DNA of 64,000 bases from Candidatus Limnocylindria bacterium. Lineage in GTDB: Bacteria > Patescibacteriota > Saccharimonadia > Saccharimonadales > JAGQNK01. Positions within the stretch are counted from its first letter, which is position 1. Each line of letters opens with the position of its first letter. The position numbers were made by a program, and so were the translations under genes. Where the stretch lies: assembly GCA_035489815.1 (NCBI GenBank), contig DATHJH010000032.1, forward strand, positions 32,301 to 96,300. The letters run 5' to 3'. The notes below the pieces were generated by a model that saw only the letters and a program-made list of their open reading frames with translations, was not told the origin of the DNA and made no database searches. Positions 3,478 to 60,470 of the stretch are shown here, in pieces.

Positions 3478-3580
3478 GCTGAGTGCTGCCGTGGCCCATC
3501 CTGAGGGGTCAGCAAGCGCCTCGGCGGCCAAAGGCCGTCCGTAAAAGCGCTCCTCAGGATGGGCCACGGCAGCACTCAGC
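3478..3580 (+). repeat. family-1 nested hairpin element, copy A (subtype 1a)
   Basis: Perfect 29-nt arms at 3478-3506 and 3552-3580 enclose the core GGTCAGCAAGCGCCTCGGCGGCCAAAGGCCGTCCGTAAAAGCGCT. Confidence 0.9.
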
Positions 3581-6050: not shown

Positions 6051-6159
6051 CCGGAACGGCTCACCCTTACGAATTCGTCAGGCTAAAGCTAACGCCATGG
6101 GCTGACCGAAGGTCACCCATAAAGTGGCCTAGAGAATTCGTAAGGGTGAGCCGTTCCGG
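6051..6159 (+). repeat. family-1 nested hairpin element, copy B (subtype 1b)
   Basis: Perfect 26-nt arms at 6051-6076 and 6134-6159. Core is GTCAGGCTAAAGCTAACGCCATGGGCTGACCGAAGGTCACCCATAAAGTGGCCTAGA. Confidence 0.9.
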
Positions 6160-7282: not shown

Positions 7283-7818
7283 GACAACTCGATCAACAAA
7301 AGTTCTGCGGCTGGTGTGGCGGCATGGTAACTTACCCTTCAAAATGGCAATCAGTCTGTAGCACATGCGGATACAAGCAATACCAAAACCCTTTACCATG
7401 CAGCAGCGCTCTTATTATCTGTGGCGATGAAGTACTAATACTCCAGCGGTCTATAGAACCAGGAAAGGGGAAGTTTGACCTCCCGGGCGGTTTTATGGAC
7501 ATGACAGACAAGTCCATAGAGGCAGCCGCTTACCGAGAACTGCACGAAGAATTGGGAATAAAACAGCGTATGATAACCCAGGTTACTTATTTTGGATCGG
7601 GCATACAGCCATACGAGTGGCAAGGAACAGAGCTACTCACAGCGCCCTGTTACTTTACCTGCCACATAACCACCAAGGACCGCGCCCGGCTTGTCGTTGA
7701 CCCCAAAGAGGGCTCTCAGGTACGCTGGGTAAGTCGGGCCGACGTACCGACCGTAGACTTTGCCTTTGATTTGGATAAGGAAATGCTTACCAGTTATTTT
7801 AGTAATAAAACACCTTAG
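7279..7818 (+). CDS. NUDIX hydrolase with N-terminal zinc ribbon
   Basis: Nudix box GGFMDMTDKSIEAAAYRELHEELGI. CGWCGG...CSTCG Cys4 ribbon. The start ATG overlaps the upstream stop (ATGA). Confidence 0.8.
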   Translation: MRQLDQQKFCGWCGGMVTYPSKWQSVCSTCGYKQYQNPLPCSSALIICGDEVLILQRSIEPGKGKFDLPGGFMDMTDKSIEAAAYRELHEELGIKQRMITQVTYFGSGIQPYEWQGTELLTAPCYFTCHITTKDRARLVVDPKEGSQVRWVSRADVPTVDFAFDLDKEMLTSYFSNKTP

Positions 7819-7830
7819 GAGGGTTATAGC

Positions 7831-8406
7831 GTGCAGCTTATAAAGACGGACATCGACGGAGTATTACAGGCTCAGCCAGACATACACGGTGACGAGCGCG
7901 GTTTTTTCATAGAAACCTACCGGCGGCAGTGGTTTCCAAATGGACGGGAAATGATCCAGGGCAACCGCGGCGACCGTAAAGCTGGCTCCATTGTGGGCTT
8001 TCACTATCACCTGCACCAAGCAGATTACTGGTACGTTCCCTTTGGCTCCGCCCGCGTCATCCTGCATGATTTTCGCAAGGACTCACCAACGTTTGGCGTG
8101 ACAGCCACCTTTGACCTTGGCGCAGACCTGAAAAGTCCGGATGATCCAAAAAAGTTCAATCACAATGGCCTCTACATCCCGCCCGGGGTAGCCCATGGCT
8201 TTGCTGCATTGTCCGACATGACTATCACCTACCTCGTGGACGGCTACTATAATCCAGCAGATGAACTAGGCATTGCCTGGAACGATCCCGATGTTGGAGC
8301 CGATTGGGGATTGAAAGATCCCGTCGCATCTGACCGCGACAAAAAGAATCCATTGCGCAAAGATATTCCGATTGAGCTAAGACCGCACTTTAAACTCCGG
8401 GGGTAA
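7831..8406 (+). CDS. rfbC: dTDP-4-dehydrorhamnose 3,5-epimerase
   Basis: 191 aa, GTG start. GDERGFFIETY, FHYH...QADYWYV, cupin-type RmlC pattern. Confidence 0.85.
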   Translation: MQLIKTDIDGVLQAQPDIHGDERGFFIETYRRQWFPNGREMIQGNRGDRKAGSIVGFHYHLHQADYWYVPFGSARVILHDFRKDSPTFGVTATFDLGADLKSPDDPKKFNHNGLYIPPGVAHGFAALSDMTITYLVDGYYNPADELGIAWNDPDVGADWGLKDPVASDRDKKNPLRKDIPIELRPHFKLRG

Positions 8407-10157: not shown

Positions 10158-10263
10158 CCCATCACAAATACCCTCTTATTCCGTCAGGGTCAGCAAGCGC
10201 CTCCGAGGGCCCATGGCCCGAGGTAAAAGCGCCCTAGAGGAATAAGAGGGTATTTGTGATGGG
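10158..10263 (+). repeat. family-1 nested hairpin element, copy C (subtype 1a)
   Basis: Perfect 25-nt arms at 10158-10182 and 10239-10263. Core is GTCAGGGTCAGCAAGCGCCTCCGAGGGCCCATGGCCCGAGGTAAAAGCGCCCTAGA. Confidence 0.9.
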
Positions 10264-13956: not shown

Positions 13957-14708
13957 GTCACAACACAACAAGTAACAACAAATTCTTCAAAGCACCCAGG
14001 TATCTCTTCCGAAAATACAATATCCTGAACCTGATCCAAACAATTCCCGTAAAAACCTTTGCAGACGTGGGGTGCGGAGCGGGCGAGTTGGCGTGTTCCC
14101 TGGCCCAAAGAGGATACAAAGGCGTGGGGATCGATTTTTCTGATGACGCACTGGCTGTTGCAAATGGCATCCGAAAAGAAAGAGGCCTGACCACCAAACA
14201 ACTGTCCTTCAACAAAGGCAGCCTCAGCGTCCTCCCTAAAAAATCTGATCTGATTATCTGCTGCGAGGTCATAGAACACCTGGAGGATGACAACAAATTC
14301 TTACAAGACGTCAAAAAGTACGGCGATTATTTTATCTTCTCTGTCCCCGCCCGCATGCAGTGGTTTGATCAATTTGACGAAAAGGTCGGCCATTTTCGCC
14401 GCTATGAAAAAGGTGAACTTATCAAACAGCTGGAAAAGCATGGGTACGTCATTAAGCGCTTTTCTTCCTACGGCTATCCTTTTATCAATGTCACCCGCCT
14501 GATGCGAAAAGCCCTGGCCGGCAAGGTAAAAAAGCAAAAAAACGCAGAGGAAATGACCAAACAAAGCGGCATCAACCCCATAAAGACCAAATACCTGCAG
14601 CTCTTAAATATAGAACCGTTTTTGTTGCCCCTGTACTGGATGAGCCGGCCTTTCAACAGATATAATCTATCTGAGGGGTACGTTGTCCTGTGTCAAAAGA
14701 AACAATAA
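13953..14708 (+). CDS. class I SAM-dependent methyltransferase
   Basis: FADVGCGAGELA motif I, CCEVIEHL. The ATG at 13953 overlaps the ugd stop (ATGA). Confidence 0.75.
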   Translation: MSHNTTSNNKFFKAPRYLFRKYNILNLIQTIPVKTFADVGCGAGELACSLAQRGYKGVGIDFSDDALAVANGIRKERGLTTKQLSFNKGSLSVLPKKSDLIICCEVIEHLEDDNKFLQDVKKYGDYFIFSVPARMQWFDQFDEKVGHFRRYEKGELIKQLEKHGYVIKRFSSYGYPFINVTRLMRKALAGKVKKQKNAEEMTKQSGINPIKTKYLQLLNIEPFLLPLYWMSRPFNRYNLSEGYVVLCQKKQ

Positions 14709-15553
14709 CCGCTTCTCTGTCCAGCGCCCGCAGATACATCGGCTTTTTTGTCATAGTTGCTGCCGCCGGAGCTTTTGTATGGTACCTCAGAGCCCACCCG
14801 GGAGCCCTGGACCCGCTGAGAGCGACGCCTTTGTACCTTATCCCGCTACTCGTTGTGCTGTACGGCCTGTTTTTACTCACTAACTTTTTCATTACCGCCA
14901 TTACCATAACTATAAGCGGCAAGTCCTATCCCTTGAAGGACTCGCTGATGCTAACCGTCTACTCCACGTTAGTGAATTTCTTTGGCCCCCTGCAAAGCGG
15001 CCCTGGATTCCGGGCGGTATACCTAAAAAAGAAGATCGGGCTGGGCATCAAGGACTACACGCTGGCCACCATGCTGTACTATGGGGCGTTCCTGGCCATT
15101 AGCCTGGTTATGATGCTTGGTATTCGCTACCCACTGGCGACGCTGGCTATAGTGGTCGTCATCACCGGGGCTGGCGTATGGTTCTTTCGGACGCAAAAAT
15201 TAGCCACTTTGATTCGTAACTTTGCTATCGTAGGGCTGGTGACATTGGTGCAGCTGGCACTCATAGCCATTATCTATTACCTGGAACTGCGGGCAACTGG
15301 CTATCATCCCTCACTGGCAGCAACCCTCACCTACACTGGTAGCGCCAACCTGGCTTTGTTCGTAGCCTTTACCCCCGGGGCAATTGGCATTCGGGAATCC
15401 TTCATATACTTTTCCCAGTCCATCCACCACATACCAACCGATCATATCCTGAGCGCCGGCCTGCTGGACCGATCAATCTACCTGATCTTCCTTGGGATTT
15501 TATTCATAAGTTCCAGCAGCCTGCACATCAGCAGCAAACTCCGGGCCAGATAG
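14690..15553 (+). CDS. polytopic membrane protein (flippase-like / LPG-synthase-TM-like, UPF0104-type)
   Basis: 287 aa, GTG start, about 8 TM helices. The function is inferred from topology and context only. Confidence 0.45.
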   Translation: MSKETITASLSSARRYIGFFVIVAAAGAFVWYLRAHPGALDPLRATPLYLIPLLVVLYGLFLLTNFFITAITITISGKSYPLKDSLMLTVYSTLVNFFGPLQSGPGFRAVYLKKKIGLGIKDYTLATMLYYGAFLAISLVMMLGIRYPLATLAIVVVITGAGVWFFRTQKLATLIRNFAIVGLVTLVQLALIAIIYYLELRATGYHPSLAATLTYTGSANLALFVAFTPGAIGIRESFIYFSQSIHHIPTDHILSAGLLDRSIYLIFLGILFISSSSLHISSKLRAR

Positions 15554-15577
15554 CTGCCAAAGGGCAGTCCAAGGCTG

Positions 15578-15725
15578 CCGACCCACCCTCACTTTCCCGT
15601 CATACCGGCCTTGATCTGCTATCCAGAAGCGTTATTGATCAGGCCTGGATTCCCAGTCAAGCCTGCCCTCGGCTCCGATCGGGGGCTGGGAATGACAGGG
15701 GTGGGAGAAAAAGTGGGGGGTAGGT
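15578..15725. repeat. family-2 structured element, copy D (MITE-like)
   Basis: About 148 bp bracketed by the imperfect direct repeat CAGTC(C)AAGGCTG (15565-15577 and 15726-15737). It contains hairpins GGCCTTGATC...GATCAGGCC and ATTCCCAG-TCAAGCC...CTGGGAATGAC. It is homologous to the element at 60087-60206. Confidence 0.7.
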
Positions 15726-15772
15726 CAGTCAAGGCTGTTAAAGCTTACGCTTTTATGCTATAATTATATTTG

Positions 15773-16318
15773 ATGGTACAAAATAAAAACTACAAGAAAC
15801 CTATACTTATCATACTTGCCGCCGTTTTGCTGGTAAGCGGCGGGGTTTTCGCATACAGAGCCTACGGCAGGGATTCAGGCCGGGACGATTGGGTGGATGG
15901 CGTAAACTACGGTCCGCCTACCGAGGAAGAAAAAGCCTCTGGTGACAAGCAGAAAGAAACCACGGACGCAGAGGAGGAGCAACAGAACGCTCCAGAACCT
16001 CCGGACCAAAATGACCCCCAGAAAAAAGCCGTGACCGTCATCATCACCGATGCCGATCAATATGATGCTATAATTGAAGTCCGATCCTTTATCTCCGACC
16101 ACTACCAAGACGGCACTTGTACGATCACCATCAAAAAAGGCAGCCAAACAGTTACCAAAAAAACGCCTGCCTACCGCGATGCCTCTACCACCATCTGCAC
16201 CAACCCGCTCATCAAACGTTCCGAGTTCCCGAGCGCCGGGGACTGGCAAGTTACAGTAGCCTACGCTTCCAAAGACGCTGCCGGCACATCGGACGCACAA
16301 ACCATTAAAATCAAGTAG
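15773..16318 (+). CDS. hypothetical membrane-anchored exported protein
   Basis: About 181 aa. N-terminal TM (PILIILAAVLLVSGGVFAY), an acidic linker, then a small beta domain. Confidence 0.6.
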   Translation: MVQNKNYKKPILIILAAVLLVSGGVFAYRAYGRDSGRDDWVDGVNYGPPTEEEKASGDKQKETTDAEEEQQNAPEPPDQNDPQKKAVTVIITDADQYDAIIEVRSFISDHYQDGTCTITIKKGSQTVTKKTPAYRDASTTICTNPLIKRSEFPSAGDWQVTVAYASKDAAGTSDAQTIKIK

Positions 16319-16321
16319 CTC

Positions 16322-18883
16322 ATGAAATACACCCTAGTCCCCCATCTCCCATACCTTGACAGGTCTGCCCTCCCAGAAGCAGTGCCAAACAGCCCGGCTG
16401 CCCTGAAACGTAGCTATGGCTACGTTTCAGGCACATCCAATCTGCCTGGCACTGCTTCTGGAAAGGCATCTAGCCGTCAGAGTATGGGAGATGGGGGACT
16501 AGGCAAACAGCAAGTAAAAAAGCGACTCGTGCCCACCATTGCTGCTGTTTTTGTCCTTGGTATCCTACTCCCGGCTGTTCTGCCCTCCCAGAACACAGAT
16601 GCGCTGAGCGGTTCGCAGTTTAATGCCGGACGAATCATCGATGATGCGGTGTTCTACAACAAAAACTCTATGTCCGCCAGCCAGATCCAAAGCTTCCTAA
16701 ACAGTAAGGTCCCGACTTGTGAAACCCACCATGCCAAATCTTCCAGCAGTAACGATTCCGGGCCGCCGTATAAATGCCTCAAGGACTATCGTCAAAATAC
16801 CGCCAACATTGCTCCGGACAGCGGCCTGTGTGGCGGCTACACCGGCAGAAGCAACGAAACAGCCGCCCAGATCATCTACCACGTCGCCCAAAGCTGCGGC
16901 ATAAGCCCTAAGGTCATACTGGTCATGCTCCAAAAAGAGCAAGGGCTGGTAACCGATACATGGCCATGGGACATTCAATACCGAAAGGCCATGGGCGCTT
17001 TCTGCCCGGACTCCGCCCCGTGCGATCCGGCTTATGCTGGATTCTTTTACCAGGTATACTACGGTGCTCATCGGTTCAAGGTCTATGCCGCCAACCCGGG
17101 TAGTTTCAACTACCGGGCCGGCCGCAATAACTCCATCCTCTGGAATCCCAAGACATCCTGCGGAAGGTCAACTGTGTACATCCAGAACCAGGCAACCGCC
17201 AGCCTCTACATTTATACCCCGTACCGCCCCAACCAGGCCGCCCTCAATAACCTGGGCGGCACCGGAGACAGCTGCAGCTCCTACGGCAATCGCAACTTCT
17301 GGGTATTCTATAACCAGTGGTTTGGCCCCACCACCGGCAGCCCCCTGTTCAAATTCAGTAATGACGCAACGGTGTATGTACTCGGCGCAAACAACAACTA
17401 CTACCGTATGGAAAATCGTGAAAAACTGGATATATACGGGTTCGGCGACACCATACATAGCGTCAAGACCGTCAGTACCAGCTATGTCTCCGGCCGGAGC
17501 TTTTCAGGCAACCTGCCGCTTATCGCCCGGTTCCAGGGAGATGAGGTCTACATGATTAGTGGCGGCCGGGCTCATCACTTTACCTCCCGGGCGCTGTTAC
17601 AGACATTTGGCTACGACATTGGCCAGGAAGCCCTGCTGCCGGCCGGCATTAAAGAATGGTACCCGGACGCCGAAGCCATGCAAACCACCGTTCGCAGCGC
17701 TAACGGCCCCGCTGTCTGGTCTGTCGAAGGCGGCAAGAAGCGGCACATCATCAATGGCGAGGCCTACCTTTCCGGCAGCCCCGCGTATGCGTCAAGGCCT
17801 GAGGTCACCTTATGGGAAGCCGTTATGGCGCCGATCGAAAACGGCCCGCCGATTCTGACGGCCAACAAGCTGTTAAAACGGACCGACCAAAACACTTACA
17901 TTTTCTGGGATGGCACCAAACGGCAGGAAATTTCTGCCAGAGTGGCCGCAGAGCTGCATCTGCCCCTCATCTATGCCACCAGAGCCTCCATACTCAACCA
18001 GTTACCCGCCGGGGGCACAGACATAGACAAGTATGTAAAAAACGGCGGCGGCGAGCTGTATGTCCTGGACTCGGGCCAAAAGTTCCTTGTGTCGCCCTCT
18101 GACCTCACCCAAATGGGACTTACCTCATCTTCATTCTCACTCGCCCCGGACGGATTCTTTGACTTTGTCCCCACTACTAAAGCTTTTAAACGGCTATTCA
18201 GAATTGGGAGCGACAGCGGCGTCTTCTTAATCAAAAGCGGGCAGCGCTATCACCTCATGAGCCCGGCCGCTGTTTCAGAAAGCGGCTTTGCACTGTCAGA
18301 CGCCATATCCCTGAACGACACATCAGCAAACCTGTTCCCTAATTCCGGAAAAAAGATTATGGCCAAGGGTACATTGTTCAGGATCGGCTCCAGGGATGAG
18401 GTGTTTGTAGTAAACACCGGCTCGTCCAGCCTGCACATTGTGTCTGCCCCTACCCTGAAGGACTACGGCCTGAAAATTGCCAGTACCTTCAGCCTCAACC
18501 CCACCCAGGCATCCGACTACCCAATGTCCGGAAAGCTCCGGCACATTGTGAAAGACGGCTCAAACAACGTCTGGCAGGTACAGAACGGCGCAGAGAAACG
18601 GCCCGTACCCACGCCCATGCAAGACCCCGGCGGCTATAACGTCATTGTTCCGGAATTAGCCGTTCTGGATACCAGCCTCTTTGGCGGATATGCCACTCAA
18701 TCAGACCTGACCAACCTCATACGCGCAGCGGGTGATGCCCGTGTATACAAGGTCGAAAACGGCAAAAAGCACTGGGTAACCAGTCGGGCCGTTTTTGACA
18801 CCAACGGGTTTTCACTCAGTAACGTCACGAACGTCTCCACAGGGTTCCTGAACAGCCTTGCCAGCGGTCCGAACATACACTAG
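16322..18883 (+). CDS. large exported cell-wall-associated protein: putative murein-hydrolase-like N-domain plus about 9 degenerate ~55-aa repeats
   Basis: 853-aa maximal ORF. A more likely start is the ATG at 16484 (MGDGGLGKQQVKKRL + TM), because codons 4-61 are the hairpin element. It carries the motif AAQIIYHVAQSCGISPKVILVMLQKEQGLV. The C-terminal repeats follow the pattern hYhh..G.+h.h.s...h...Gh. Confidence 0.7.
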   Translation: MKYTLVPHLPYLDRSALPEAVPNSPAALKRSYGYVSGTSNLPGTASGKASSRQSMGDGGLGKQQVKKRLVPTIAAVFVLGILLPAVLPSQNTDALSGSQFNAGRIIDDAVFYNKNSMSASQIQSFLNSKVPTCETHHAKSSSSNDSGPPYKCLKDYRQNTANIAPDSGLCGGYTGRSNETAAQIIYHVAQSCGISPKVILVMLQKEQGLVTDTWPWDIQYRKAMGAFCPDSAPCDPAYAGFFYQVYYGAHRFKVYAANPGSFNYRAGRNNSILWNPKTSCGRSTVYIQNQATASLYIYTPYRPNQAALNNLGGTGDSCSSYGNRNFWVFYNQWFGPTTGSPLFKFSNDATVYVLGANNNYYRMENREKLDIYGFGDTIHSVKTVSTSYVSGRSFSGNLPLIARFQGDEVYMISGGRAHHFTSRALLQTFGYDIGQEALLPAGIKEWYPDAEAMQTTVRSANGPAVWSVEGGKKRHIINGEAYLSGSPAYASRPEVTLWEAVMAPIENGPPILTANKLLKRTDQNTYIFWDGTKRQEISARVAAELHLPLIYATRASILNQLPAGGTDIDKYVKNGGGELYVLDSGQKFLVSPSDLTQMGLTSSSFSLAPDGFFDFVPTTKAFKRLFRIGSDSGVFLIKSGQRYHLMSPAAVSESGFALSDAISLNDTSANLFPNSGKKIMAKGTLFRIGSRDEVFVVNTGSSSLHIVSAPTLKDYGLKIASTFSLNPTQASDYPMSGKLRHIVKDGSNNVWQVQNGAEKRPVPTPMQDPGGYNVIVPELAVLDTSLFGGYATQSDLTNLIRAAGDARVYKVENGKKHWVTSRAVFDTNGFSLSNVTNVSTGFLNSLASGPNIH
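16333..16503. repeat. 171-nt triple-nested perfect hairpin element (E)
   Basis: Outer arms are 22/22 perfect (16333-16354 and 16482-16503). The middle stem is 14/14 (16373-16386 and 16448-16461). The inner stem is 12-13 bp (16403-16414 and 16419-16430) with loop TATG. Confidence 0.9.
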
Positions 18884-18899: not shown

Positions 18900-19006
18900 G
18901 GCCGAGTCAGCTACTTTCGTTCCTCTAGGGCGCTTTATGGGCGATCCTTACGGATCGGCCCATGGCGCTTGCTTACCCGGACGGAACGAAAATAACTGGC
19001 TCGGCC
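18900..19006 (-). repeat. family-1 nested hairpin element, copy F (subtype 1b, core on minus strand)
   Basis: 24-nt arms at 18900-18923 and 18983-19006 with 21 WC pairs. The minus-strand core is GTCCGGGTAAGCAAGCGCCATGGGCCGATCCGTAAGGATCGCCCATAAAGCGCCCTAGA. Confidence 0.9.
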
Positions 19007-24974: not shown

Positions 24975-25022
24975 AAACTGTACTTTTATTTTGTCCGGCC
25001 GGATATAAATGGAGTACAGTTT
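24975..25022. promoter_or_regulatory. imperfect 48-bp palindrome (candidate operator) upstream of the PaaX/Cas2-fold gene
   Basis: AAACTGTACT-N-GTCCGGCCGGAT-N-AGTACAGTTT. It shares its ends and its centre with the perfect palindrome at 25545-25598. Confidence 0.6.
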
Positions 25023-25033
25023 CAGAGGACATC

Positions 25034-25549
25034 ATGAAAAGAAGCAGGAGCACCAAAGATTTACCAAACTCAGCCCTGGCCTATGTACTGGAGGCCTTGA
25101 TCCCTTACTCTGATGCGAACGTAAAGCTAGCTTTCAAGCCGCACCTATTCTTTAACGACCTTGAGAACATTGCCCGGCAAAAGCAAAGCCTCAGCTACCG
25201 TCGTCAAACTTTACGGAATGCTTTTTACCACGCCAAGCGTAGTGGATTTATTGAGTTTAGTAAGTCTGGTGGCCCACGCCTTACGCGCAAAGGGGAAGCG
25301 TACTTAAAGCCCTATGAGCCAAGCAAGCTTGGCGACTCCGCACGACTCATGGTTATATTTGATATCCCGGAAGAACAGCGAGCCAAGCGTCGCTACCTAA
25401 GGCTCATACTTAGACAGTTAAAATTCAAAATGGTTCAGCAAAGTGTTTGGATAAGTAAGTACGATTGCAAAACGATTCTTCATGATGAGATCGAAGCGTA
25501 TGAGCTGCAGGCTTATGTTCAAATATACGAGTGCGTTCGATTATTATAA
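25034..25549 (+). CDS. PaaX-like / Cas2-fold domain DNA-binding protein
   Basis: 171 aa. The C-terminal RLMVIFDIPEEQRAKRRYLRLILRQLKFKMVQQSVWISKYD matches the ferredoxin-like Cas2/PaaX-middle-domain pattern. The N-terminal half is wHTH-like. Confidence 0.6.
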   Translation: MKRSRSTKDLPNSALAYVLEALIPYSDANVKLAFKPHLFFNDLENIARQKQSLSYRRQTLRNAFYHAKRSGFIEFSKSGGPRLTRKGEAYLKPYEPSKLGDSARLMVIFDIPEEQRAKRRYLRLILRQLKFKMVQQSVWISKYDCKTILHDEIEAYELQAYVQIYECVRLL

Positions 25550-25598
25550 CTGTACTCTAAAAATGTCCGGCCGGACATTTTTAGAGTACAGTTATAAG
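25545..25598. terminator. perfect 54-bp palindrome; candidate bidirectional intrinsic terminator and/or operator
   Basis: 27/27 perfect arms centred on GTCCGG|CCGGAC, flanked by A5/T5 runs. It contains the stop codon of the ORF at 25034-25549 and lies between convergent genes. Confidence 0.7.
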
Positions 25599-31681: not shown

Positions 31682-31782
31682 GCCGGCACCGACCACTCGC
31701 CCCCCTAGGGCGCTTTTACGAATTGCCTAACGGCGATTCGAGGCGCTTGCTGACCCTAGGGGGCCAAGCAGTCGGTGCCGGC
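31682..31782 (-). repeat. family-1 nested hairpin element, copy I (subtype 1a, core on minus strand)
   Basis: 26-nt arms at 31682-31707 and 31757-31782 with 22 WC pairs. The minus-strand core is GGGTCAGCAAGCGCCTCGAATCGCCGTTAGGCAATTCGTAAAAGCGCCC. Confidence 0.9.
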
Positions 31783-31796
31783 TGGCCCGTGGAGTT

Positions 31797-31960
31797 AGAA
31801 CCTGCTCATGATCTCGCTCCTGATGCCAAAACTGATCCATTTCGAGTGGCAATTCGTTCTAGTTTTCCTGCTGTACCCATAGGTACGGCAGGGGGATTAG
31901 GGCGGATTGACGCCGGAATGGGCGGCTTTGGGACAGGATTTGAGATCATGAACAGGTTCT
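31797..31960. repeat. 164-nt nested hairpin element (J)
   Basis: 19-nt arms at 31797-31815 and 31942-31960 with 18/19 paired. An inner 11-bp stem lies at 31867-31877 and 31883-31893. Confidence 0.8.
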
Positions 31961-35462: not shown

Positions 35463-37226
35463 ATGTGCGGTATCTTTGGCCACACACAACCCGGCAAGAA
35501 CCCGACCGCCTCACGGCGTGCTTTGAACACTTTAGCCCACCGCGGGCCAGACCAATGGAACGACTGGCAGGACAAGGAAGTGTATGTGGGCCACCGGCGG
35601 CTCAGCATTATCGATCTGTCTGAACATGGGCGGCAGCCTATGTCTGCCCAGGGCGTTGTTATAACGGTGAATGGGGAAATCTATAATTACAAAACCCTCA
35701 AAAAAGAACTGGGGAACAAGTACGCCTACCAAAGTGATTCTGACTCAGAAGTCCTCATCTACGGCTATCTGGAATGGGGCATGGACAAGCTTCTGGAAAA
35801 ATTAGAAGGTATGTATGCTTTTGTGCTGTACGACACCAGGCAGAGGAAACTCTTTTTGGGCCGGGACCGGGCGGGCATCAAACCCTTGTACTATTCGCAT
35901 AAGGGCGGCCAAATAGCCTGGGCCTCAGAGCTCAAAGCCCTTACCAGTTTCCATACCGAGGCAAAGCTGGAGGTTGACTCCACGGCCGTCTACGACTACC
36001 TGACCTACCGGTACATCCCCACCCCAAAAACGCTCTACAAGGACGTATACAAACTGCCGCCGGCGCAGTACCTGGAACTGGACCTGCACACGCACAAGCT
36101 CCAGAAAAAACAGTATTGGACACTCGGGCTTGTCAAAATCAACCCAACCCTGGACGAGGCCGCCGCCAAAGTCAGGGAACTGGTCGACCAAGCCGTCCAG
36201 GAACAGCTGATGAGCGACGTCCCAGTGGGCTTTTTCCTGAGCGGCGGCATGGACTCCAGCACCGTCGTAGGCATAGCCGCCCAGCACAGCAAACAGCTAA
36301 ACACCTACGCCATCGGTTTTGATATAAAAGAGCACGACGAAACCCACTTTGCCGAACTGGTAGCCAAAAAGTTTAAGACCAATCACCGGCGCAAGGTCGT
36401 GTCTGTGGGTGAGGTCAAAAAACTCTTCCCCAAAATCAAAGACTGGTACGACGAGCCTTTTGCTGACACCTCCACCTTCCCGGTTTACATAGTGTCCAAG
36501 CTCACCAAGCCCAGTTCAACAGTGGTGTTGACCGGCGACGGCGGAGACGAAGTCTTTGGCGGCTACAACTGGTACGCCGACTTCAAAAAAAATGCCCCTG
36601 GTTTTATCAAAGAGAACTACCCCGGCTCCCGACTAAAAAGAAAACTCACCCGGTCCCACCAGGCAACCATCACCAACCTGGAGTTCGCCTACTACACCAA
36701 ACTCATGGGCGGCCTGACCCGGGAAGAAAAGGCCGGCTACCGCAAACAATTCGGTATAGCTGACTCCTACGATGACTATTGGTATTTTAGAAAATTCTAC
36801 CGGCCAGAACTGCCCCTCTATACCCGCCTGCAATACCTGGACTTTCACACCTATCTGCATGACGACATCTTAACCAAAGTCGACCGGGCCAGCATGGCCG
36901 TAGCCCTGGAGTGCCGGGTACCACTGCTGTCCACCCCCCTCATCGAGTACCTGTTTTCTCTGCCGGAAAATATTCGCTATCACAACGGTGAGCTTAAGGG
37001 ACTTATGAAATACGCCTTCCACGACCTGCTGCCGGATGAAATCCTAAACCGCAAAAAAAAAGGCTTCAGCATCCCCACCGGCCGCTGGCAGCCAAACCTG
37101 ATGGAGCGGGACACCACCGTACCAGAGTTCATCCTCAAAAAGTTTTTCAATAATACCACGGGTCGGTCCAAAACGGCTGCCCCTTCACAGCACAAAAGGC
37201 TTCAGCATAGCCGGCGTAATTTTTGA
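35463..37226 (+). CDS. asnB: asparagine synthase (glutamine-hydrolysing) family amidotransferase (WbpS-like context)
   Basis: 587 aa. MCGIFG N-terminal nucleophile, PP-loop FLSGGMDSS. The last ~20 codons overlap hairpin element K. Confidence 0.85.
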   Translation: MCGIFGHTQPGKNPTASRRALNTLAHRGPDQWNDWQDKEVYVGHRRLSIIDLSEHGRQPMSAQGVVITVNGEIYNYKTLKKELGNKYAYQSDSDSEVLIYGYLEWGMDKLLEKLEGMYAFVLYDTRQRKLFLGRDRAGIKPLYYSHKGGQIAWASELKALTSFHTEAKLEVDSTAVYDYLTYRYIPTPKTLYKDVYKLPPAQYLELDLHTHKLQKKQYWTLGLVKINPTLDEAAAKVRELVDQAVQEQLMSDVPVGFFLSGGMDSSTVVGIAAQHSKQLNTYAIGFDIKEHDETHFAELVAKKFKTNHRRKVVSVGEVKKLFPKIKDWYDEPFADTSTFPVYIVSKLTKPSSTVVLTGDGGDEVFGGYNWYADFKKNAPGFIKENYPGSRLKRKLTRSHQATITNLEFAYYTKLMGGLTREEKAGYRKQFGIADSYDDYWYFRKFYRPELPLYTRLQYLDFHTYLHDDILTKVDRASMAVALECRVPLLSTPLIEYLFSLPENIRYHNGELKGLMKYAFHDLLPDEILNRKKKGFSIPTGRWQPNLMERDTTVPEFILKKFFNNTTGRSKTAAPSQHKRLQHSRRNF

Positions 37227-37291
37227 CCTCGTGGCCAAAATTACCCGCGCGAAGCGGTCTTCTGGGTGGGAAGGGGCAGCTGTTTTGGACC
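37165..37291. repeat. 127-nt hairpin element (K) straddling the asnB stop codon
   Basis: 22-nt arms at 37165-37186 and 37270-37291. 21/22 are WC pairs and one is G:T. Confidence 0.8.
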
Positions 37292-42772: not shown

Positions 42773-42853
42773 TATAGACATCACACTCTGTCCTGCCACC
42801 AGAGTTGCCTGAGGGCAGGCAAGTCGGGACAGGGTCAGGGTGTGATGTCTATA
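42773..42853. repeat. 81-nt nested hairpin element (L)
   Basis: Perfect 14-nt arms at 42773-42786 and 42840-42853. Inner pairings are CTGTCC/GGACAG and CTGCC/GGCAG. Confidence 0.75.
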
Positions 42854-50011: not shown

Positions 50012-50117
50012 GCCACACATGCTACCTGCTGAATCTCTAGGCCGCTTTATAGGTGGCCTTACGGCCAGCCTATGGCGCTAGCTTTAGCCTGACGATTCAG
50101 CAGGTAGCATGTGTGGC
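50012..50117 (-). repeat. family-1 nested hairpin element, copy M (subtype 1b, core on minus strand)
   Basis: Perfect 24-nt arms at 50012-50035 and 50094-50117. The minus-strand core is GTCAGGCTAAAGCTAGCGCCATAGGCTGGCCGTAAGGCCACCTATAAAGCGGCCTAGA. Confidence 0.9.
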
Positions 50118-59653: not shown

Positions 59654-60031
59654 CTATGACAAAAGAGTAACGTCAATGAGGCTACCGTAGTTTTTTGCCA
59701 GCTTGCCATCAAAAGTTACAAACTGCTTACAGTCACCCAATACCGCACAAGCCACCTGCAATGCGTCTTCAAAATCGTCATCCTGGCGGTTGGTGATAGC
59801 CCAGCGCAAGACCGGCGAGCCCATATCCGTTATCTTATAGCTCTGAATATCTTCCAGCAGATCGGCCAGCGTATGTTTTTCTTTTTGACCAAAATATACA
59901 TACAGATGCGCCGAAAGCGGAGATATACATGCTTGCTCAGCACGAACCAGAGCTGCTGCTGCAACCTCGGCCTTCCTGCGCCCCCGCAAAAGCACTTCCA
60001 GCAAAATGTTTGCGTCAAAACAGGTCTTCAT
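59654..60031 (-). CDS. PIN-domain toxin (VapC-like)
   Basis: 125 aa. CFDANILLEVL (Asp), DFEDALQVA, VTFDGKL. Confidence 0.75.
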   Translation of the reverse strand: MKTCFDANILLEVLLRGRRKAEVAAAALVRAEQACISPLSAHLYVYFGQKEKHTLADLLEDIQSYKITDMGSPVLRWAITNRQDDDFEDALQVACAVLGDCKQFVTFDGKLAKNYGSLIDVTLLS

Positions 60032-60036
60032 GCATG

Positions 60037-60450
60037 CTATCCGCGATATGGAGGCTTATGCTTTGGGTCCGTGTCAAGCATCTGATACCTGACTCTCAAA
60101 ACCCTGGTCCTGTCATCCTCCAGCTTGACTGGAGGATCCAGTAGAATAACAAGAATACTGGATTGTCTGGTCAAGCCAGACAATGACGAGGTTTTGAGAG
60201 TCAGGTTCTGATGATACAGCTCTTTGACGGATTTATTCGGATCAAATGCAGGCTTACTGCTTGTGCCCTTGCGGTTGGCAGTGCGGACAAGAAAGCGCTG
60301 GACTGCCTCGCGGCTACCGGGCGCAGTCTTCTTGGCGGACGGAACTTCCGGGGTAATAGTAAAAGCAGGCTTAGACCGATACGTCACCCGGATACGTTCC
60401 CCGGCCCTTGCCCGTGCAACAACCTTGTCCAGATTTGTCACACTATGCAA
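60037..60450 (-). CDS. Phd/YefM-like antitoxin ORF with an in-frame repeat-element insertion in its 3' third
   Basis: 137 aa. The N-terminus (VTNLDKVVARARAGERIRVTYRSKPAFTITP) is antitoxin-like. The codons covering 60087-60206 are the MITE-like element. The ORF ends 5 nt before the PIN gene. Confidence 0.55.
   Translation of the reverse strand: MHSVTNLDKVVARARAGERIRVTYRSKPAFTITPEVPSAKKTAPGSREAVQRFLVRTANRKGTSSKPAFDPNKSVKELYHQNLTLKTSSLSGLTRQSSILVILLDPPVKLEDDRTRVLRVRYQMLDTDPKHKPPYRG
60087..60206. mobile_element. family-2 MITE-like element, copy N
   Basis: 120 bp with perfect 17-bp terminal inverted repeats ACCTGACTCTCAAAACC / GGTTTTGAGAGTCAGGT. It is flanked directly by the 6-bp direct repeat TCTGAT (60081-60086 and 60207-60212). 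It has three internal hairpins. Confidence 0.8.
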
Positions 60451-60470
60451 TTAATGTTATATAGTAACTT

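Follow-up and report, generated by a model that had tools for sequence, protein, structure and literature searches.

Two structured blocks of a Patescibacteria-like genome are copies of one short mobile DNA element that carries no gene

In the 64-kb stretch of Patescibacteria-like DNA analysed here (the window), a block at 15578–15725 had been singled out in a preliminary description as a strongly folding element ahead of a gene for an exported protein, related to a second block inside an antitoxin gene. This locus raises the question of whether the two blocks are related and whether they are to be read as structured RNA or as mobile DNA. We find that the first block (el1) is a decayed copy, and the second (el2, 60087–60206) an intact copy, of the same small gene-less mobile DNA element, and that their core hairpins are of the same type as Neisseria dRS3/NTS and the Ssn-related motif (SRM).

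Homology of the two blocks

Inspection of the sequence confirmed every shared motif that had been listed for the two blocks. The first contains CCCGTCAT (15596–15603), ATCCAG (15621–15626), CTGGATT (15645–15651), GTCAAGCC (15656–15663) and ATGACAGGG (15692–15700); the second contains CCTGTCAT (60109–60116), ATGACGAGG (60183–60191) and, across 60136–60177, the series ATCCAG...CTGGATT...GTCAAGCC. The spaced pattern ATCCAG-N12-24-CTGGATT-N4-8-TCAAGCC matched exactly twice in the window and never in 100 shuffles. Local alignment of el1 with the reverse complement of el2 scored 46, a value reached by none of 1,000 dinucleotide shuffles (20.8 ± 3.6). A covariance model trained on 80 copies, all from other genomes, recognized el2 on both strands (60108–60191; 80.1 bits, E = 4e-20) and el1 at 15595–15700 (39.4 bits, E = 9e-9 on the plus strand; 36.3 bits on the minus strand), with no further match at E < 0.1 in the 64-kb window. 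The shuffled alignments and the model thus bear out the earlier claim that both blocks belong to one family. No link between them emerged from a plain blastn run at sensitive settings, so the similarity is diverged though real. This failure, together with a minimum-free-energy fold of el1 that does not reproduce the structure first described, would suit a coincidental resemblance between short strings of low complexity; both shuffle tests and the detection of both blocks by an independent model refute that reading, as do homologous copies at no fewer than 119 loci elsewhere, and we regard it as vanishingly improbable.

An intact element within an antitoxin gene

The second block is an intact, non-autonomous 120-bp element in which a dimer of REP hairpins is enclosed by terminal inverted repeats (TIRs); the two elements and the target-site duplications are treated here as strandless. 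The TIRs are perfect over 17 bp (17 of 17 bases complementary), with ACCTGACTCTCAAAACC on the left (60087–60103, plus strand) and GGTTTTGAGAGTCAGGT on the right (60190–60206, plus strand), and are flanked by two copies of the 6-bp target-site duplication TCTGAT (60081–60086 and 60207–60212). REP unit A (60111–60141, plus strand) consists of the tag TGTC (60111–60114), a stem of ATCCTCCAG and CTGGAGGAT around the loop CTTGA, and the tail CCAG. Unit B (60158–60188, minus strand) has the tag CGTC (bottom strand, 60185–60188), a stem of ATTGTCTGG and CCAGACAAT, and the same loop and tail. Both stems are 9 bp long and 100% complementary (arms 60115–60123 and 60129–60137 in unit A; 60162–60170 and 60176–60184 in unit B).

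The element lies in frame within a Phd/YefM-type antitoxin open reading frame (ORF; 60037–60450, minus strand), where it adds 42 codons (QNLTLK...RVRY)—the element plus one copy of the duplication amounts to 126 nt, and the ORF stays open in the only stop-free frame of the six. About 30 antitoxin homologues lack exactly these 42 codons and represent an empty site at the protein level; in silico removal of el2 and one TCTGAT restores both the ORF and the conserved C terminus (...KELYHQMLDTDPKHKPPYRG*). The N terminus lacks the conserved MKTITAKELR, and given this truncation the host gene may be undergoing decay instead of coping with the insertion. As context, a putative PIN-domain (VapC-like) toxin gene (59654–60031, minus strand) lies 3′ of the antitoxin gene; in our reading, the PIN assignment is suggested by its sequence and by PIN/antitoxin pairs in relatives.

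Further copies show that the 120-bp unit is mobile. A copy in an unrelated metagenome locus (L145:3764–3883) is 100% identical to el2 over exactly 120 bp, has flanks unrelated to those of el2 and carries its own 6-bp duplication, GGATAG. An element in L150 combines the TIRs of el2 with different REP stems and the duplication GATTAA, and across L145, L150, L148, L140 and L147 the TIR 17-mer bounds elements with differing REP stems. In L145, which holds at least four TIR-bearing copies in 12.5 kb (the window has two family copies in 64 kb), collapsed copies are flanked by near-perfect 6-bp repeats; the two copies at L145:6511 and L145:7818 show an imperfect duplication, and it was looked for and found absent at el1 and in L148. 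At L145:12397, a perfect left TIR precedes unrelated sequence, which continues beyond the end of the locus. All of the complete copies recovered with TIRs at both ends contain REP-derived sequence, either as full dimers or as collapsed GTCAT...ATGAC remnants. For family members other than the el2 subfamily, the signs of target-site duplication (5 bp in L081 and possibly 7 bp in L012) are suggestive only. A 17-mer match in L137 lies inside an unrelated ORF and probably reflects coincidence or a relic, and a search of viral contigs with the TIR 17-mer gave one isolated match that looks like chance. The view of the family as mobile and MITE-like thus stands on its TIRs, the 6-bp duplications, the empty sites of 42 codons, the restored ORF on excision, the identical copy elsewhere and the further copies sharing the TIR.

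A decayed copy between two genes

The recognizable core of el1 (15595–15700) is a degenerate REP dimer. Unit A (15598–15626) has a broken stem around CTTGA, with pairing at no more than about 4 of 6 positions. Unit B (15645–15697, bottom strand) carries an extra hairpin of about 25 nt after TCAAGCC, and el1 now falls outside the stem definition of CGTC-REPs. The tags are still legible as CGTC (15598–15601) and, on the bottom strand, TGTC (the reverse complement of ATGACAG), and each unit of el1, like each unit of el2, ends in the tail CCAG, which appears as ATCCAG/CTGGAT. The full extent, approximately 15578–15730, takes in a C-rich/G-rich linker (CCCACCCTCAC...GTGGGAG), similar to linkers at L145:6511 and L145:7818, and decayed, vestigial termini without a recognizable 6-bp duplication. 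The right end (...GGTAGGTCAGT) resembles ...GAGAGTCAGGT and probably lies near 15730. The span first given for the block, 15578–15725, was roughly right, with outer ends too decayed to fix.

The imperfect direct repeat reported to bracket the block fared less well. All three strings exist—CAGTCCAAGGCTG on the left (15565–15577, plus strand), CAGTCAAGGCTG on the right (15726–15737, plus strand) and the internal near-copy CAGTCAAGCCTG (15654–15665)—but they do not make a credible target duplication, which is 6 bp rather than 12–13 bp in intact relatives. The left member forms a small stem-TCAAG-like hairpin (GGCAG-TCCAAGG-CTGCC) and is probably REP-derived debris; the right member overlaps the decayed right terminus of el1, and the internal copy is no more than the stem-TCAAG-stem at the tip of the second REP hairpin.

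The element lies between an LPG_synthase_TM-family gene (14690–15553, plus strand), the stop codon of which precedes the el1 core by about 40 nt, and a gene for a small exported protein (15770–16318, plus strand). A putative extended −10 box of the TGnTATAAT type (TGCTATAAT, approximately 15757–15765) is located downstream of el1; it was not called by a simple promoter scan and is conserved as TGCTATACT in L121, the closest relative of the locus. The placement "upstream of an exported-protein gene" accordingly holds as a matter of position only, el1 preceding the −10 box of that gene. In L121, the intergenic region measures 110 nt versus 216 nt in the window (106 nt shorter) and gave no match to the covariance model. 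Together with the antitoxin homologues that lack the insert, this shorter, copy-free region answers the earlier call for empty sites in relatives. No family copy was found in 110 kb of related Saccharibacteria-like loci.

The core across bacterial phyla

A 21-base core pattern was found at 119 or more loci across many phyla among GTDB genomes (about 12 are expected by chance, as an estimate), and GTCAT and ATGAC, which lie outside the search pattern, are present in 104 of the 122 matches. The scan added Nitrospirota, Omnitrophota, Chloroflexota, Patescibacteria and others to the phyla of the family; plasmid and phage collections yielded one weak plasmid match and no phage match. Like el1 and el2, around 100 copies from other places consist of two inverted units whose tags point outwards, and the GTCAT/ATGAC closing pairs and the ATCCAG/CTGGAT hairpin arise because two hairpin repeats are inverted. 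Both REP stems show compensatory covariation in an alignment of family copies. The closing and middle stems never vary there, partly owing to the way in which copies were collected, so the covariation is neutral on whether a real four-way junction forms; anchored extension of the closing stem in about 100 copies was only slightly above mismatched controls. Outer inverted repeats occur 8–18 nt off the core and are lineage-specific.

The published SRM consensus, HGTCWYN(0-2)YYVSBRHN(0-5)WNVSBRGN(0-2)RNCYNB, is matched by 53 of 101 family copies (Neisseria NTS by 8). It has no exact match in the window; the top strand of el2 fits with two substitutions and el1 does not fit with up to two. The units of el2 agree exactly with the definition of CGTC-REPs as given in section 6 of Di Nocera, De Gregorio and Rocco (BMC Genomics 2013, PMC3733652).

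Nuclease cassettes and the search for a mobilizing enzyme

In L042, L129 and L152, a REP–GIY-YIG–REP cassette adjoins gene-less dimers that share both of its ends, and L028 retains a remnant of the association. The cassette genes are small and encode a single GIY-YIG domain (PF01541 at E = 1e-17 for the L042 ORF; precomputed PF01541 matches for L129 and L152), with the hairpin copies inverted around them. This adjacency in three lineages suggests that gene-less dimers are internal-deletion derivatives of REP–GIY-YIG nuclease–REP cassettes. The 17-bp TIR shell is absent from all three cassettes, so the nuclease is tied to TIR-driven transposition only indirectly. Enzymes of the GIY-YIG type act by hydrolysing DNA, and strand transfer is not known for them. 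One GIY-YIG protein (P0257), present on 65 contigs, had been considered as a case of many insertion sites and proved to be one conserved locus seen in many samples.

Within the 64-kb window, a motif scan, tblastn and a family HMM detected neither a GIY-YIG gene nor a transposase. No autonomous element with the ends of el2 was found in the window, the other loci examined or viral contigs, and the cognate transposase with ACCTGACTC ends anticipated in the preliminary description was likewise not found.

Proposed mechanism and alternatives

We propose, with a probability of roughly three in four, that el1 and el2 are copies of a non-autonomous mobile CGTC-REP-dimer element that combines a TIR shell, 6-bp target duplications, an origin from a nuclease cassette and hairpins cut by Ssn-type enzymes. 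The core consists of two CGTC-tagged REP hairpins in inverted orientation, each with a (C/T)GTC tag, a stem that starts with AT, a 5-nt CTTGA loop and a CCAG tail, and one unit is readable on each strand; the apparent cloverleaf is a geometric consequence of this inverted arrangement. In this lineage, 17-bp TIRs (ACCTGACTCTCAAAACC) enclose the dimer, and the 120-bp unit would move as DNA and leave 6-bp target duplications. A transposase acting in trans, presumably encoded outside the window, would recognize the TIRs and make 6-bp staggered cuts. By analogy with three other lineages, the dimer may have originated when a REP–RBS–GIY-YIG nuclease–REP cassette lost its gene, and the literature suggests that REP hairpins extruded in single-stranded DNA would be recognition and cleavage sites of Ssn-type GIY-YIG enzymes, with the tag giving orientation. 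On this model, el2 is an in-frame insertion in the Phd/YefM antitoxin gene that keeps the reading frame open, and el1 is an insertion of long standing in intergenic DNA 3′ of a gene, where REPs usually come to rest.

Could the blocks instead be primarily RNA elements, with a stable multi-branched transcript serving in cis as a terminator, 3′-end stabilizer or processing site, and mobility being secondary? The fold of el2 is strong as RNA (z = −9.6), el1 sits about 40 nt past a stop codon and ahead of the next promoter, as is typical of REPs, and the covariation of the REP stems is compatible with any single-stranded fold; Di Nocera et al. argue, in section 15 of their paper, that many REPs are transcribed and may act as RNA (PMC3733652). 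The single-stranded DNA of el2 folds equally well on both strands (z = −9.9 and −8.7), however, and many family copies match the covariance model on both strands, with no fixed orientation relative to genes. The fold of el1 is barely above shuffles (z = −2.7 as RNA and about −2 as DNA), and el1 is not followed by a terminator-like run of T. A cis-regulatory role is not evident for el2 within a coding region, and conserved TIRs and target duplications are DNA-level features. Searches of the window and of seven canonical loci against Rfam 15, at gathering and lenient thresholds, gave no relevant match. SsnA, the only characterized partner of this hairpin type, binds and cuts single-stranded DNA and not double-stranded DNA or RNA (Nat Commun 2025, PMC11893778). 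We therefore consider a primarily RNA-based function quite unlikely, and the strongly folded transcript of the preliminary description is not required to explain the blocks. A 76-nt four-way fold had also brought to mind ribozymes that cleave themselves (twister or twister-sister) and tRNA-like structures; this idea was dropped, as no model matched, ARAGORN found no tRNA or tmRNA, and the junction follows from inverted-dimer geometry.

A closer contender, which we hold possible but less probable than our model, takes the TIR unit for an ordinary MITE of a DDE transposase, in which the REP dimer is a passive passenger or a nested, earlier insertion and Ssn-type enzymes have no role in this lineage. 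It would account for TIRs that are better conserved than REP stems (L150, L148 and L140 compared with el2), for the fixed 6-bp length of the duplications and for the perfect left TIR with unrelated sequence behind it at L145:12397, and it agrees with the lack of a GIY-YIG gene in the window and of this TIR around the GIY-YIG cassettes. Against it, all complete TIR-bounded copies recovered hold REP-derived sequence, and lineage-specific outer inverted repeats surround the same core elsewhere, including, according to section 7 of PMC3733652, in H. neapolitanus; shell and core therefore seem to travel jointly by design. An extension of our own model goes further, and we regard it as doubtful: the TIR-bounded, 6-bp-duplicating unit might be the transposable form of CGTC-REP/SRM dimers, descended from a TIR–REP–GIY-YIG(Ssn)–REP–TIR parent, with gene-less dimers as precise deletion derivatives. 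If so, spread of the element would depend on a hairpin-specific single-stranded DNA GIY-YIG nuclease, instead of or together with a classical transposase, and gene-less dimers would be able to invade coding sequences in frame.

Comparison with known systems

The closest known repeats are the CGTC-tagged REPs (CGTC-1 to CGTC-4), which the 2013 survey describes from five phyla that do not include Patescibacteria (PMC3733652). They are defined there by a CGTC, TGTC or CCTC tag, an 8–9-bp stem starting with AT, a 4–5-nt loop and a CCA tail, mostly occur as inverted pairs capable of folding together into a single larger structure, and usually lie just 3′ of coding regions, sometimes within ORFs in which they encode extra residues; in H. 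neapolitanus, a longer palindrome encloses all dimers. The survey reports no dedicated transposase, and the parts cited here make no mention of target-site duplications. Tag, stem, loop, tail, inverted dimer and location inside an ORF are shared by el2, whereas its enclosure by a conserved 17-bp TIR and 6-bp duplications sets it apart. Rickettsia palindromic elements likewise insert in frame without closing the ORF, which is also the behaviour of el2 in its antitoxin gene; they were described in Rickettsia, and their kinship to el2 would follow from the published equivalence of RPE-4 with CGTC-4 and of RPE-6 with CGTC-1 (PMC3733652).

The Neisseria NTS corresponds to the 5′ half of the canonical family core (CGTCAT-TCCCGC-GAAA-GCGGGA-ATCCAG), and SsnA, a GIY-YIG single-stranded DNA endonuclease, cuts Neisseria dRS3/NTS and SRM (PMC11893778). 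In contrast to the family described here, that work, in the parts cited, treats single hairpins and describes neither an inverted dimer nor its origin from a cassette that lost its gene, and likewise no TIRs or target duplications; moreover, neither el1 nor el2 matches SRM exactly, and the window has no ssn gene.

REPINs and their RAYT enzymes offer the nearest parallel in organization, being inverted doublets of tagged hairpins that are non-autonomous and multi-copy, with hairpins flanking a single small enzyme gene. They differ in the tag (GTAG versus CGTC) and in the enzyme (an HUH/Y1 tyrosine transposase versus a GIY-YIG hydrolase), and, as far as we know, REPINs lack a shell of TIRs and do not duplicate their target. 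Classical MITEs (Correia/NEMIS, RUP and ERIC) resemble el2 in size (70–300 bp), TIRs, fixed-length duplications, non-coding character and identical copies at unrelated sites, yet the interior of el2 is a conserved, phylum-spanning REP dimer rather than the remnant of a transposase gene, and no parent insertion sequence was found. The AC-initiated ends and a duplication within 3–9 bp recall what we take to be features of the IS982 family.

Implications

Two anonymous structured blocks of a Patescibacteria-like genome can thus be assigned to a family of repeats that is spread over many phyla of bacteria and the biochemical partner of which, the Ssn single-stranded DNA nucleases, was identified only in 2025. 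For annotation, this means that the cloverleaf-like fold should not be taken for a novel RNA and that the antitoxin gene should be flagged as carrying a 42-codon selfish insert. The family is real but largely ordinary selfish DNA and not a new structured RNA. With its TIRs, target duplication, identical copy and reconstructable empty site, el2 provides unusually clean evidence that hairpin dimers of this kind can move as discrete units; for the spread of CGTC-type REPs and related in-frame palindromic inserts, its copies set the ends and the duplication length that a candidate transposase would have to explain.

Two homologous elements in the window

The blocks at 15578–15725 (el1) and 60087–60206 (el2) are homologous. 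Both contain (C/T)GTCAT, a CTTGA-centred segment, ATCCAG, 16–19 nt, CTGGATT, a TCAAGCC-centred hairpin and ATGAC in the same order, which bears out the motifs and the kinship proposed in the preliminary description. Exactly two matches to the pattern ATCCAG-N12–24-CTGGATT-N4–8-TCAAGCC occur in the 64 kb, against none in 100 shuffles, and aligning el1 locally to reverse-complemented el2 gave a score of 46 (dinucleotide shuffles, 20.8 ± 3.6; ≥46 in 0 of 1,000). Sensitive blastn alone did not recover the pair. A covariance model built from 80 foreign copies matched el2 at 60108–60191 (80.1 bits (+), 72.8 bits (−)) and el1 at 15595–15700 (39.4 bits (+), 36.3 bits (−)), with no third match at E < 0.1 in the window. 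The strong folding previously ascribed to the transcript holds for el2 (z = −9.6 as RNA against shuffles) and not for el1, which folds marginally better than shuffles. As single-stranded DNA, el2 reaches z = −9.9 and −8.7 on its two strands, and the earlier emphasis on RNA is not supported.

The core is a dimer of CGTC-tagged REPs

The passages of Di Nocera et al. (2013; PMC3733652) drawn on here define CGTC-tagged REPs (hairpin repeat units) by a CGTC/TGTC tag, an 8–9-bp stem beginning AT, a 4–5-nt loop and a CCA tail. They describe mostly inverted dimers, sometimes intragenic and sometimes inside longer palindromes, equate them with dRS3 (Neisseria) and RPE-4/-6 (Rickettsia) and call them "apparently lacking a dedicated transposase". 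Both el2 units, one per strand, fit this definition exactly (TGTC-ATCCTCCAG-CTTGA-CTGGAGGAT-CCA and CGTC-ATTGTCTGG-CTTGA-CCAGACAAT-CCA). The two units are inverted with their tags outward; the previously noted "closing pairs" are therefore the tag and AT of one unit pairing with those of the other, and the ATCCAG...CTGGATT hairpin is formed by their tails.

The Neisseria Transformation Sequence (NTS; CGTCATTCCCGCGMAVGCGGGAATCYRG), which contains dRS3, makes up the 5′ half of this family's canonical core. In the consulted portions of PMC11893778, the small GIY-YIG protein SsnA binds and cuts the NTS hairpin only as single-stranded DNA, and ssn genes often have this motif on their flanks. The published regular expression for the Ssn-related motif is narrower than the present family, matching 53 of 101 copies, el2 only with two substitutions and el1 not at all. 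Extruded hairpins would be recognized by an Ssn-type single-strand nuclease.

A 21-base pattern from the shared core, run on one genome per GTDB species, matched at least 119 loci (approximately 12 estimated by chance). Hosts among the matches listed were Nitrospirota, Alpha-, Beta-, Gamma- and Deltaproteobacteria, Thermodesulfobacteriota, Omnitrophota, Dehalococcoidales, Patescibacteria, Actinomycetes and Clostridia, with many copies in Inquilinus. GTCAT upstream and ATGAC downstream, though absent from the search pattern, occurred in 104 of the 122 matches listed, in which the GTCAT-to-ATGAC core usually spans 69–82 nt (mode, 76). Alignment of 80 copies gave a four-helix consensus with abundant compensatory changes in both lateral hairpins (at one pair, in as many as 43 of the 80 sequences). 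Covariation supports two hairpins rather than a four-way junction, because the closing and middle stems are invariant, partly as a result of how copies were collected. There was no Rfam family of this type and no tRNA-like gene by ARAGORN. Both el1 and el2 belong to a phylum-spanning family of CGTC-REP dimers.

The host label, Candidatus Limnocylindria, looks wrong, because homologues of the LPG-synthase-family protein (annotated Patescibacteria or Saccharibacteria) and gene order point to Patescibacteria/Saccharimonadia; identical NCBI proteins carry "MAG TPA: Candidatus Limnocylindria bacterium". The portions of the literature consulted contained no earlier description of the family from this host phylum.

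An insertion in an antitoxin gene and a possible relic

The mobile-element reading proposed previously is supported for el2, a MITE-type insertion whose ends form a perfect 17-bp terminal inverted repeat (TIR), with TCTGAT on both sides as a 6-bp duplication. It lies in a Phd/YefM-type antitoxin ORF (60037–60450, − strand) upstream of a putative PIN-domain gene. Approximately 30 antitoxin homologues (~100 aa each) represent the empty site at protein level, lacking exactly the 42 inserted residues (QNLTLK...RVRY); the sole other protein with these residues is the same sequence in an NCBI MAG (locus tag VK674_05960). Loss in silico of the 120 bp and one TCTGAT restores ...KELYHQMLDTDPKHKPPYRG*, in agreement with the family consensus, and the frame used across el2 is the only stop-free frame of six. 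The antitoxin gene may be decaying, and the module degenerating independently of the insertion, because the conserved N-terminal MKTITAKELR is missing; the ORF start directly follows stop codons (60420–60470, − strand).

A metagenome scan for TIR plus GTCAT identified further copies (L-numbers denote comparison loci from other genomes or metagenomes). L145:3764–3883 shares exactly 120 bp with el2 at 100% identity, within unrelated flanks and with its own duplication (GGATAG), which demonstrates recent activity. L150 has identical TIRs, different REP stems and the duplication GATTAA; two collapsed copies (L145:6511–6593 and 7818–7884) have near-perfect 6-bp repeats. L140, L147 and L148 also carry TIR plus REP-dimer copies, that of L148 with no target duplication.

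For el1, the same reading is plausible, as a relic. Its right terminus is vestigial, it has no 6-bp duplication, and it shares a C-rich/G-rich linker with the collapsed L145 copies. The 12–13-nt direct repeat bracketing el1 coincides with the stem-TCAAG-stem of the REP loop and a decayed terminus, and would be REP-derived debris; its reading as a target duplication is not supported. The closest relative available for comparison, L121 (79% identical LPG-synthase-family protein), has an intergenic region of 110 nt against 216 nt and no covariance-model match; a downstream −10-like box, TGCTATA(A/C)T, is conserved in both.

Other hairpins and palindromes

A second hairpin family occurs at 3478–3580, 6051–6159 and 10158–10263 (+) and at 18900–19006, 31682–31782 and 50012–50117 (−), with an outer stem of 25–33 bp, unique to each copy, that encloses a core conserved between copies (roughly CGTCAGG(G/C)-UCAGCAAGCGCC-[hairpin]-UAAAAGCGCCCUAGAG). 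A stop codon precedes the start of most copies by 6–25 nt. The core shares the CGTC tag of REPs, and CGTCAGG resembles the terminal AGTCAGGT of el2. The family had no Rfam match, and its strict pattern matched this genome only (~1 Mb of loci compared). Related palindromes centred on TGTCCGG|CCGGACA (25544–25597, with perfect 27-bp arms and zero spacer, and 24975–25022) flank an ORF at 25034–25549; their sole Rfam match, a microRNA precursor, is meaningless. A triple-nested inverted repeat with 28-, 27- and 13-bp arms (16333–16503; −120 kcal/mol as RNA) sits at the annotated 5′ end of an 853-aa ORF, the true start of which is probably downstream. Long stable hairpins of neither family lie at 31797–31960 (−106 kcal/mol), 37165–37291 (−76 kcal/mol) and 42773–42853 (−54 kcal/mol).

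Origin and mobilization

We infer that the dimers derive from GIY-YIG cassettes. L042 encodes a 96-aa single-domain GIY-YIG ORF (PF01541, E = 1e-17) between GTCAT-hairpin-ATCCAG and CTGGAT-hairpin-ATGAC; the gene-less dimer that comes next repeats both of these hairpins and the initial 5 nt of the spacer. In L129, the ORF takes its AGGAG ribosome-binding site from the 5′ REP tail and ends in a stop codon that directly adjoins the 3′ REP; two dimers next to it retain the ribosome-binding site and an ATG fused directly to CTGGAT. L152 (Nitrospirae) has the same REP–GIY-YIG–REP layout and two tandem dimers. The GIY-YIG family yielded at least 7,992 matches, the majority on very short contigs, with no member (by HMM) in the window or beside most dimers. 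At L028:7200–7760, a BIME/NIME-like cluster of at least four dimers, one with a zero-length spacer (ATCCAGACTGGAT) and one with a 70-nt spacer, lies beside the C-terminal remains of a GIY-YIG gene.

The 17-bp TIR shell is absent from the L042, L129 and L152 cassettes. Across copies, conservation is higher in the TIR than in the hairpin stems, a pattern expected of a transposase binding site, and a transposase would mobilize the element in trans. L145:12397–12523, with a perfect left TIR (ACCTGACTCTCAAAACC), two small hairpins, a possible ATG and no REP before running off the locus, may be the start of an autonomous partner. At L147:169–906, a serine-recombinase-like ORF (by eye) directly adjoins the TIR plus REP-dimer element at the contig end. 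Eight further loci from other lineages (L029, L112, L091, L059, L012, L043, L080 and L081) have their own outer inverted repeats 8–18 nt beyond the dimer (for example, TCGTAAAAAGWCCGAAT in Desulfobacterales-type hosts, TAGAGTCTGTGTATAAA in Nitrospirota, and also CCTTTGCAAAAC). Several of these end A-rich, ...AAAAC(C), as the el2 TIR does, and L081 and L012 show possible 5–7-bp duplications. For this class of repeats, ends and a target-duplication length are now defined.
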